Assembly (NCBI RefSeq): GCF_003334385.1
Contig: NZ_QOWN01000052.1
DNA length: 32,012 nt
Strand: one strand, 5' to 3'
From: Escherichia coli
Lineage (GTDB): Bacteria; Pseudomonadota; Gammaproteobacteria; Enterobacterales; Enterobacteriaceae
Under the pieces are notes generated by a model, which had not been told where the DNA came from, searched no databases, and was given only the letters and a program-made list of their open reading frames with translations. Below, piece after piece: positions 18,485 through 18,802 of this stretch. Positions within the stretch are counted from its first letter, which is position 1. Every line of letters begins with the position of its first letter. The position numbers and the translations under genes are program-made.

Positions 18485-18662
18485 ATCGTATTCCCATTTG
18501 TAATAGACAAAAAAAAGAGAAAAGTAAGCCGCCCTTTCAGGTGGATTACTTTTCTCAGGTCTCTAGTAATTGAAATAATAAATAACATGGAAAGCAGAGG
18601 TGTTGTGTGAGAGTAATCACGCTTCTGCTTTTTAAAATTATTTGACAATACGAATATCACAC

Positions 18663-18678
18663 TGTGATTACGATCACA
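18663..18678. promoter_or_regulatory. Candidate CRP binding site in the divergent yqcE / ygcW intergenic region
   Basis: TGTGA ttacga TCACA matches both CRP consensus half-sites exactly with 6 bp spacing; a TTGACA hexamer lies at 18642..18647. Confidence 0.55.
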
Positions 18679-18731
18679 TTAGCAGTTATGCCCTTATGCT
18701 AAAAATTATCTCCAGTTACCAGAGATAATGA

Positions 18732-18778
18732 GAAAGGTAACTTCCCTCTCGCGGGGGAAGTTACCTTTCTTTTTTTTT
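18732..18778 (+). terminator. Strong intrinsic terminator/attenuator in the ygcW 5' leader
   Basis: Perfect 15 bp stem GAAAGGTAACTTCCC / GGGAAGTTACCTTTC with an 8 nt loop, followed by a run of 9 T; ends 25 bp upstream of the ygcW ATG, downstream of the candidate promoter. Confidence 0.7.
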
Positions 18779-18802
18779 GCCTTACGGAAATTGGAGCTAA
18801 CT

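Follow-up and report, generated by a model that had tools for sequence, protein, structure and literature searches.

The window analysed here, a stretch of 32,012 nucleotides of the Escherichia coli contig NZ_QOWN01000052.1, contains the ygc gene cluster. According to the RefSeq annotation of an identical stretch, the gene order is ygcE and yqcE on the minus strand, then ygcW, ygcU, ygcS, ygcR and ygcQ on the plus strand, and then ygcP, ygcO and ygcN, again on the minus strand. The operons yqcE-ygcE and ygcW-ygcU-ygcS-ygcR-ygcQ are thus divergent, and our subject is the spacer between them, with a terminator in each of the two leaders, together with the product of ygcP, a protein of the GlpP family of antiterminators.

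The terminator of the ygcW leader had been noticed previously. A preliminary description of this DNA reported a stem of 15 bp, a loop of 8 nt and nine T residues; the hairpin and the T9 tract are confirmed, although the stem was slightly understated, as folding yields 19 bp and a 4-nt loop. A repeat search finds the arms as perfect 16-nt repeats (18731-18746 and 18755-18770) with 8 nt between them. The segment 18706-18780 folds with -35.9 kcal/mol, compared to -15.4 +/- 2.9 kcal/mol for 200 dinucleotide shuffles (z = -7.0), none of which was as good, and the site is by far the strongest terminator-like site within 15 kb. Its orientation, also claimed previously, agrees with the operon ygcW-ygcU-ygcS-ygcR-ygcQ in both gene order and strand. 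The RefSeq annotation has no feature at this place, and a scan of positions 17000-20000 with Rfam 15 (E <= 10) produced chance matches only, the best one scoring 24.9 bits against a gathering score of 90.

What the preliminary description overlooked, however, is a homologous terminator on the minus strand within the same spacer, in front of yqcE (Table 1). The divergent yqcE-ygcE operon bears the same leader device as the ygcW operon, and the two leaders can be aligned along their whole length: the ygcW leader starts with AGUUACC-AGAGAUAAU-GAGAAAGGUAAC, and the yqcE leader, with AAUUACU-AGAGACCU-GAGAAAAGUAAU. The pattern TTACYAGAG-N3-6-GAGAAARGTAAY occurs exactly twice in the 32-kb window, compared to no occurrences in 100 shuffles. 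Both leaders are copies of one motif of about 70 nt, comprising a class II CRP promoter, the sequence 5'-A(G/A)UUACY-AGAG-N4-GAGAAA(A/G)GUAAY, the terminator and a tract of seven to nine U residues. From 67 diverse copies of this motif we constructed a covariance model, R1, which, with filters off, found nothing in the whole window beyond the two leader copies. A blastn search for more copies in E. coli was uninformative, being too insensitive to link even the two leaders to each other.

Table 1. Features of the yqcE-ygcW spacer and the ygcP gene. Positions refer to the window; R1 is the covariance model of the leader motif.
Feature	Position	Strand	Remarks
Divergent yqcE-ygcW intergenic region	18485-18802		318 nt
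U tract (U8), yqcE leader terminator	18516-18509	-	24 nt from U-tract end to yqcE ATG (18484)
yqcE leader terminator hairpin GAGAAAAGUAAUCCACCUGAAAGGGCGGCUUACUUUUCUC	18556-18517	-	minus-strand folding, repeat search; R1 match 72.0 bits
5' segment AAUUACU, yqcE leader	18571-18565	-	AUUACU pairs with AGUAAU at 18550-18545
Extended -10 TGuUAUUUA, yqcE promoter	18587-18579	-	predicted; inferred start ~18572
Second CRP-like site TGTGAGAGTAATCACG	18606-18621	.	predicted; centre 18613.5, -41.5 from inferred yqcE start
CRP site TGTGATTACGATCACA	18664-18679	.	centre 18671.5, -41.5 from inferred ygcW start (class II)
Extended -10 TGcTAAAAA, ygcW promoter	18697-18705	+	predicted; inferred start ~18712-18714
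5' segment AGUUACC, ygcW leader (upstream strand of proposed antiterminator helix)	18714-18720	+	pairs with 18736-18742
Purine-rich tract AGAGAUAAUGAGAAAGG (AGAG-N4-5-GAGAAARG)	18721-18737	+	antiterminator loop and base of terminator 5' arm
ygcW leader terminator hairpin	18730-18771	+	19 bp, 4-nt loop; folding; R1 match 79.4 bits
U tract (T9), ygcW leader terminator	18770-18778	+	24 nt from U-tract end to ygcW ATG
Shine-Dalgarno GGAG and ygcW start codon	18793-18805	+	ATG at 18803
ygcP, GlpP-family (PF04309) protein, proposed trans-acting antiterminator	24305-24880	-	last in ygcN-ygcO-ygcP

Term-seq data from E. coli grown in LB to an optical density of 0.4 (Adams et al. 2021, supplementary tables, PMC7815308), the coordinates of which we converted via the MG1655 record, contain a 3' end in each of the two leaders. 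In the ygcW leader it is located at MG1655 2900311(-), 38 nt before the start codon (window position 18765; mean 40,640 reads; intrinsic-terminator score 15.8), and in the yqcE leader, at MG1655 2900556(+), 36 nt before the start codon (window position 18520; mean 1,557 reads; score 11.4); scores of 3 and above point to intrinsic termination. Both ends are outside Rho regions, and neither is flagged as a known element (PMC7815308). Thus, transcription starts upstream of both hairpins, and short leader RNAs accumulate, so that the terminated leader transcript anticipated for ygcW is present in published data, and for both operons. Each leader has a G+C-containing stem-loop, a U tract directly 3' of it and a Rho-independent 3' end in vivo, that is, the features of an intrinsic terminator.

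The promoters can be placed by comparison of the motif copies. The site TGTGATTACGATCACA, a perfect CRP site, is bound by CRP in chromatin immunoprecipitation data for enterotoxigenic E. coli (PMC4287617) and in Footprint-seq data for K-12, with Kd of about 1.7 nM (PMC12871828); position 18713 is 41.5 nt from its centre, 7 nt after the extended -10 element and 1 nt before AGUUACC. On the other side, the yqcE-ygcE operon is listed as Crp-activated (PMC8085971), and enterobacterial yqcE leaders retain both a CRP-like site 42.5 nt from the AAUUAC segment and the sequence caTGnTAttt. Judging from this spacing, the two divergent promoters do not seem to share a class II CRP site, but to have one each. 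The second CRP-like site, TGTGAGAGTAATCACG, is 58 nt from TGTGATTACGATCACA; of these two, only the site at 18664-18679 is reported as bound in the cited CRP papers.

The same arrangement is observed in other taxa. In 52 of the scored enterobacterial motif copies a CRP-like site is centred 42.5-44.5 nt before the A of AGUUAC, enterobacterial copies keep TGnTA 8 nt before AGTTAC, and Firmicutes copies have a TATAAT-like box 6-7 nt before AGUUAC. As the positions of the CRP site and of the extended -10 or TATAAT-like box are conserved, the transcripts very probably start 1-2 nt before AGUUAC. The supplements of Cappable-seq and SMRT-Cappable-seq studies have no transcription-start entry near the site. 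The location of the promoter upstream of the hairpin, as the preliminary description had it, is borne out by the conserved extended -10 element and the CRP site at -41.5 of the inferred start.

The leader can form two competing helices. The first one is the terminator itself, for which 94.7% of cells are paired in the model-fitted alignment, with compensatory changes in 9 of the 15 pairs; in an unfitted MAFFT alignment 94.6% of cells are paired, and RNAalifold predicts the terminator there as well. The base of the terminator, GAGAAAAG/CUUUUCUC, is nearly invariant, and the G, A and G of AGAG, as well as GAGAAA-G, are invariant in the 67 diverse copies. This conservation exceeds the need of a terminator and therefore points to sequence-specific recognition; we propose the purine tract as a candidate contact of YgcP.

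The second helix is formed by the 5' segment AGUUACY and the complementary RGUAACU in the 5' arm of the terminator. It is paired in 88.8% of cells, compared to 20-57% when the partner is slid, and it covaries: one position is G-C in 54 copies and A-U in 26, another is U-A in 59 and C-G in 20, and copies differ within single Firmicute genomes. An alternative antiterminator structure overlapping the stem, suggested earlier as something to look for, hence does exist. The minimum free energy structure of the nascent RNA is the antiterminator (ygcW, -6.7 kcal/mol; yqcE, -1.4 kcal/mol), and that of the full leader is the terminator (ygcW, -33.8 kcal/mol; yqcE, -21.6 kcal/mol). Since the antiterminator is far weaker than the terminator, it would need a protein holding it in order to prevail, as is classical for switches of this type. 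A further small hairpin, ATTATCTC..GAGATAAT (18705-18729), was ruled out as a part of the switch, since only E. coli has it and since its 5' arm precedes the inferred start.

In order to describe the phylogenetic distribution of the motif, we used a YgcW-based scan with one genome per species, which yielded 80 loci with genes mapped by tblastn, and searched 1.18 Mb with R1 at a threshold of at least 35 bits. The whole ygc cluster is found in Enterobacterales, and a form comprising ygcP, ygcW, ygcE, ygcU and the genes for electron transfer flavoprotein (ETF), in Clostridia, Cohnella, Sporomusa and others. Loci with ygcW, ygcE and ygcU and without ygcP are found in Actinomycetota, Desulfobacterales and others. 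Wherever ygcP is present, a terminator with the same stem sequence is located 5' of ygcW. R1 produced 117 matches at or above the threshold, all immediately upstream of ygc genes, and each ygcP-containing locus is among them. Together with the loci chosen via YgcP (see below), the ygcP loci bearing the motif belong to Enterobacterales, Vibrio, Photobacterium, Clostridia, Bacilli and Sporomusa. Firmicutes loci often have two or three copies, each before a different operon.

At the same threshold R1 had no match in any of about 22 ygcW loci lacking ygcP. The other matches come from four loci with no ygcP seen in the flank: two of these loci end early (L019, L028), one match is weak at 35.5 bits (L050), and one is from Serratia microhaemolytica (L034), a species with a YgcP orthologue (P0050) according to the protein search. 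Vice versa, when three loci were chosen via YgcP orthologues and the motif was predicted beforehand, all three carried it at the expected place; the R1 scores in the YgcP-side loci are 67.9 and 61 bits in Vibrio hannami, 68 bits in Thalassobacillus, and 50 and 37.8 bits in Photobacterium. The motif is thus a cis element that strictly co-occurs with a gene for a PF04309 protein. The position of this gene varies, as it follows ygcO in E. coli, is situated by ygcE in Serratia and Pantoea, adjoins ygcW in Firmicutes, and follows a gene of a major facilitator superfamily (MFS) transporter in Vibrio, so that ygcP stays with the motif despite changes of place and orientation between lineages. It is also the only regulator-like gene common to all motif-bearing loci; loci without ygcP have other regulators nearby, e.g. 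GntR and MocR-like ones.

A scan of metagenomes with a DNA pattern produced 120 loci, about 100 of which are ygc clusters, and R1 was run on the 19 loci without detectable ygc genes. Four of the latter have a full match: two are on a contig also bearing ygcP (L096, L162), one is an E. coli yqcE leader followed by the start of yqcE (L118), and one is on a 3-kb contig (L138). Eleven marine pattern matches had no match at the R1 level and were judged unrelated, and four more metagenome matches were judged to be due to chance. The marine matches all represent TTACTAGAGGGCACGAGAAAAGTAAT, a recurrent sequence with a small hairpin and a U run after it; it resembles the motif in its 5' half, and no gene for a PF04309 protein was detected there. 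This sequence looks phage-derived, as a phage small-terminase-like gene lies downstream of it in the one locus examined (L103). In two assemblies, labelled as Chryseobacterium sp. 18061 and as a metagenome-assembled genome of Planctomycetota, the ygc sequence is of the Enterobacteriaceae type (YgcW identity 93% and 100%, respectively), which looks like contamination or mislabelling.

Several strains and species differ in the spacer itself. The region is present at a single place per E. coli genome and in a fixed position relative to the genes, which rules out a mobile or repetitive element; it is absent from about 360 of 5,426 complete E. coli genomes. In E. coli PK8277 the locus is absent and a 47-bp piece of the intergenic region (matching window positions 18594-18640) is kept at an unannotated place, possibly as a deletion scar. 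In E. coli NCTC9104 the ygcW leader module is duplicated in tandem over 67 bp (equivalent to window positions 18705-18771, beginning immediately before the start and including the complete stem), so that there are two serial hairpins, the first one without a U tract. Either a natural variant of the regulation or an artefact of long-read assembly could account for this. In Limnobaculum eriocheiris (positions 3085-3162 of the locus) there is a single palindromic hairpin flanked by A9 and T9 in a yqcE-ygcW gap of about 125 nt, and both promoters and both 5' segments are missing. As the two leader hairpins of a sister species are identical inverted repeats, recombination deletion between the leader hairpins, or assembly collapse, is the likely cause.

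The claim that the cluster encodes a GlpP-family protein holds: YgcP matches PF04309 (G3P_antiterm) over its full length (E = 1.6e-62, model positions 1-173 of 173), has the PDB relatives 3KTS (1e-27) and 1VKF, and is 31% identical, without gaps, to GlpP of Priestia megaterium, which is encoded beside glpF-glpK-glpD. The gene is transcribed in the ygcN-ygcO-ygcP operon, before which no copy of the motif was found, as the approximately 70 nt after queD contain no hairpin and no R1 match with filters off. This gap between the queD stop and the ygcN start (window positions 26430-26500, minus strand) is short and without a terminator-like hairpin, hence ygcN-ygcO-ygcP may be read through from queD. 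On the other side, the convergent gap between ygcQ and ygcP (window positions 24160-24270) is full of palindromic repeats (gccggatg, tgtaggcctgataagacgcg, gcatcaggc) resembling repetitive extragenic palindromes and bacterial interspersed mosaic elements.

The genes regulated by the two leaders encode a short-chain dehydrogenase/reductase (KduD-like, below the cut-off), an FGGY kinase, a GlcD-like FAD oxidase, ETF and MFS transporters. The kinase YgcE is not GlpK (99 bits against a cut-off of 590), and glpF, glpK, glpD, glpT and glpQ, the content of a glycerol regulon sensu stricto, are not among the regulated genes. The glp regulon of E. coli is run by GlpR. Therefore glycerol-3-phosphate, which the preliminary description had considered as a ligand, is unlikely in this role, and the product of the FGGY kinase YgcE would be the natural candidate, by analogy with the glycerol system. 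In seven loci from other taxa the ygcW, ygcE, ygcU and ETF genes adjoin transporters of the BCCT family (betaine/carnitine/choline type) and homologues of MttB-like methyltransferases (tri-/dimethylamine type). These neighbours hint that the ygc substrate may be, or derive from, a quaternary amine compound.

Taken together, these observations make it rather probable that the ygcW and yqcE terminators are the RNA target of YgcP, acting by antitermination of the GlpP type. Each copy of the module would consist of a CRP-dependent class II promoter, giving a leader of about 65 nt that begins with A(G/A)UUACY and continues with AGAG-N4-GAGAAARG and a strong terminator, the 5' arm of which starts inside the purine tract. 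By default, the terminator would form and transcription would halt about 25-30 nt before the start codon, leaving an abundant short leader RNA. Under inducing conditions YgcP, probably loaded with a phosphorylated intermediate of the pathway, would bind the nascent leader at the AGUUA and GAGA-rich sequence and either hold the AGUUACY-RGUAACU helix or simply sequester the 5' arm of the terminator. The terminator would then be unable to fold, and transcription would read through into ygcW-ygcU-ygcS-ygcR-ygcQ and yqcE-ygcE. Here we infer the transcription starts, the binding of YgcP to the RNA, the ligand, and the read-through as a consequence of binding. YgcP-dependent antitermination, which the preliminary description had suggested for ygcW, is well supported by the in vivo 3' ends, the placement of the promoters, the covarying competing helix, the association with ygcP across phyla, and an apparent likeness to validated GlpP targets; the comparative evidence is strong but falls short of proof.

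Several points weigh against this reading. The co-occurrence of the motif and ygcP may in part result from the entire cluster being inherited as a single block, and ygcP is in a separate operon that lacks the motif. Compared to the terminators, at about -34 and -22 kcal/mol, the antiterminator helix is short and weak (6-7 bp; -6.7 and -1.4 kcal/mol). Two positions account for its covariation, and, as many of the sequences are related, the shuffle statistics overstate independence. In glycerol-type leaders the 5' sequence AGUUAAUA has no complement in the terminator arm, so that AGUUA might instead be contacted by the protein, with the pairing in ygc leaders being partly incidental. We also know of no structure that reveals how PF04309 proteins, with their TIM-barrel-like fold, bind RNA. 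Finally, the in vivo 3' ends are situated within the 3' arms (after GUUACC in the ygcW leader and after CUUACUUUU in the yqcE leader), 4-13 nt before the ends of the U tracts. For this we assume 3' exonucleolytic trimming into the A-U-rich base of the stem as the likeliest cause, and RNase III cleavage of the long perfect stems is conceivable.

There are three alternatives to control by YgcP. If the hairpins were constitutive terminators of two small divergent RNA genes, or insulators against CRP-driven transcription, the operons would use other promoters or stay silent, and the short RNAs might act in trans. The abundance of the ygcW leader RNA in LB, with its 40,640 Term-seq reads and low coverage downstream, is consistent with this, and the 3' ends resemble those of a stable processed small RNA. 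However, there is no room for another promoter, as only 24 nt, including the Shine-Dalgarno sequence, separate each U tract from the ATG. Moreover, the same module stands before two or three different operons per Firmicutes locus, always directly upstream of a coding gene, and a plain terminator would not be expected to have an alternative helix that covaries. We therefore consider constitutive termination unlikely, although the leader RNA may have a role in trans beside its role in cis.

The terminators could also be conditional and controlled by something other than YgcP, that is, another RNA-binding protein, coupling to the ribosome and translation, or a general factor, the co-occurrence with ygcP then being a by-product of cluster inheritance. 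The location of ygcP in a different operon is consistent with this possibility, and co-inheritance of the cluster is hard to separate from function with these data. At the same time, a leader peptide, or an N-terminal extension, starting at the ATG at 18728 in frame with ygcW is ruled out, as this codon is not conserved and other taxa read AAGAGAAAAG and TTGAGAG. The persistence of ygcP beside the motif while moving between lineages, and its being the sole regulator-like gene common to all motif-bearing loci, argue against such control, as does, by analogy, the fact that the closest characterised relative of YgcP performs exactly this kind of antitermination. Hence this alternative seems very unlikely to us.

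The least probable explanation is that the leaders are metabolite-binding riboswitches. In this case the RNA itself would sense a small molecule, and YgcP would be either an enzyme or some unrelated regulator. Such a view agrees with the presence of two conserved helices that exclude each other, with the strong conservation of an unpaired tract, and with the enzyme-like barrel fold of PF04309 (3KTS, 1VKF). However, upstream of the terminator just about 25 nt are conserved, with one short helix, and there is no matching Rfam family. Moreover, the loci with ygcW, ygcE and ygcU and without ygcP (some having GntR or MocR-like regulators) all lack the motif, although the same metabolites are expected there, and the homologous glp leaders need GlpP (PMC9604022, PMC7430163).

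Control by YgcP would provide a concrete regulatory logic for a ten-gene orphan cluster of K-12, namely CRP together with YgcP-dependent antitermination at twin leaders, as well as a likely function and an RNA target for YgcP. In the literature on ygcW, ygcP and their neighbours we found CRP-site lists and screens only, and no description of this leader switch; to our knowledge, it would be the first case of GlpP-type antitermination in Proteobacteria. The RNA motif is conserved across Proteobacteria and Firmicutes and is absent from both Rfam and the RefSeq annotation. As far as we know, RNA recognition by GlpP has never been structurally defined, and the invariant positions and the covarying helix of a second target class indicate which nucleotides to mutate. 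With the leader and YgcP as a reporter, one could search for the inducer and thereby arrive at the substrate of the ygc pathway; the ygc leader may also serve as a portable inducible part, like the glpD leader.

Among the known systems, transcriptional riboswitches with a terminator platform resemble the ygc leaders in their mutually exclusive terminator and antiterminator, a short leader near the 5' end and accumulation of the terminated RNA. The ygc leader differs in having no complex aptamer, no Rfam match and, with its conserved part of about 25 nt and one helix, not the make-up of a riboswitch family, and its presence depends on a protein gene. HutP at hut and PyrR and TRAP of Bacillus are similar to the proposed ygc device in that a metabolite-loaded protein reads short repeated purine-containing leader motifs (NAG repeats in the case of HutP), but they belong to other protein families and follow other repeat rules, and PyrR and TRAP promote termination. 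In the case of BglG of E. coli and SacY and LicT of B. subtilis, a ligand-controlled RNA-binding protein stabilises a weak hairpin overlapping the 5' arm of a stronger terminator, and leader copies precede more than one operon gene, both as proposed here. These proteins, however, use the unrelated CAT-PRD fold under phosphorylation by the phosphotransferase system, and their ribonucleic antiterminator sequence differs from the ygc leader; no CAT-PRD protein is found among the 19 annotated features of the cluster.

The closest system is that of GlpP and the glpD, glpFK and glpTQ leaders of B. subtilis. The glpD 5' untranslated region confers glpP-dependent induction by glycerol on foreign promoters, and deletion of glpP abolishes the induction (PMC9604022); GlpP bound to glycerol-3-phosphate is reported to bind the antiterminator (PMC7430163). 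YgcP and GlpP are both PF04309 proteins, with 31% gapless identity of YgcP to a GlpP of Bacillales. Both systems appear to have the same succession of a promoter, an AGUUA start, a tract rich in GAGA that extends into the terminator's 5' arm, the strong terminator itself, a Shine-Dalgarno sequence and a start codon; in both, several operons of one pathway have their own leader copy, and an FGGY kinase of the pathway could make the phosphorylated effector, as GlpK makes glycerol-3-phosphate. The glp layout is common to the B. subtilis glpD 5' untranslated region (PMC9604022, Table S4) and six glpF and glpD leaders of Priestia, Lysinibacillus and Paenibacillus. All of them begin with AGUU(A/C)AUA right after the -10 element, and a purine-rich tract, mostly GGAGAAYNGGAGAGACC or UGAGAUGAGGAGAGACC (the exceptions being the Lysinibacillus glpF and Paenibacillus glpD leaders), enters the 5' arm of the terminator. 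With R1 the glp leaders produced one weak match, at the expected place in the P. megaterium glpD leader (18.6 bits, E = 0.086). What the ygc and glp leaders seem to have in common is the 5' AGUUA and the purine-rich, mostly GAGA-containing tract abutting the terminator arm.

The differences are equally clear. The ygc regulon has no glpF, glpK or glpD; the RNA consensus is AGUUACYAGAG-N4-GAGAAAAGUAAC for ygc against AGUUAAUA-N-GGAGAAYNGGAGAGACC for glp; and the ygc class is found in Proteobacteria with class II CRP promoters. A helix joining the 5' end to the terminator arm, with clear covariation, could be established for the ygc leaders and not for the glp class; in glycerol-type leaders such a helix (X-X') is seen in B. 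subtilis and Lysinibacillus glpD, and not consistently. The ygc leaders are a new RNA class, distinct from the glp class, and would define a new regulon within GlpP-type antitermination. At about even chances, the ygc motif and the glp leaders may be two specificity classes of one ancient cross-phylum switch, in which PF04309 proteins read a 5' AGUUA and tandem GAGA. K-12 would then have, besides BglG, a second and previously unrecognised class of ligand-gated RNA-binding antiterminators, responding to a phosphorylated intermediate of an uncharacterised catabolic pathway, possibly linked to quaternary amines or polyols. The abundant terminated leader RNA, about 53 nt long, may in addition serve to titrate YgcP or have a function in trans.

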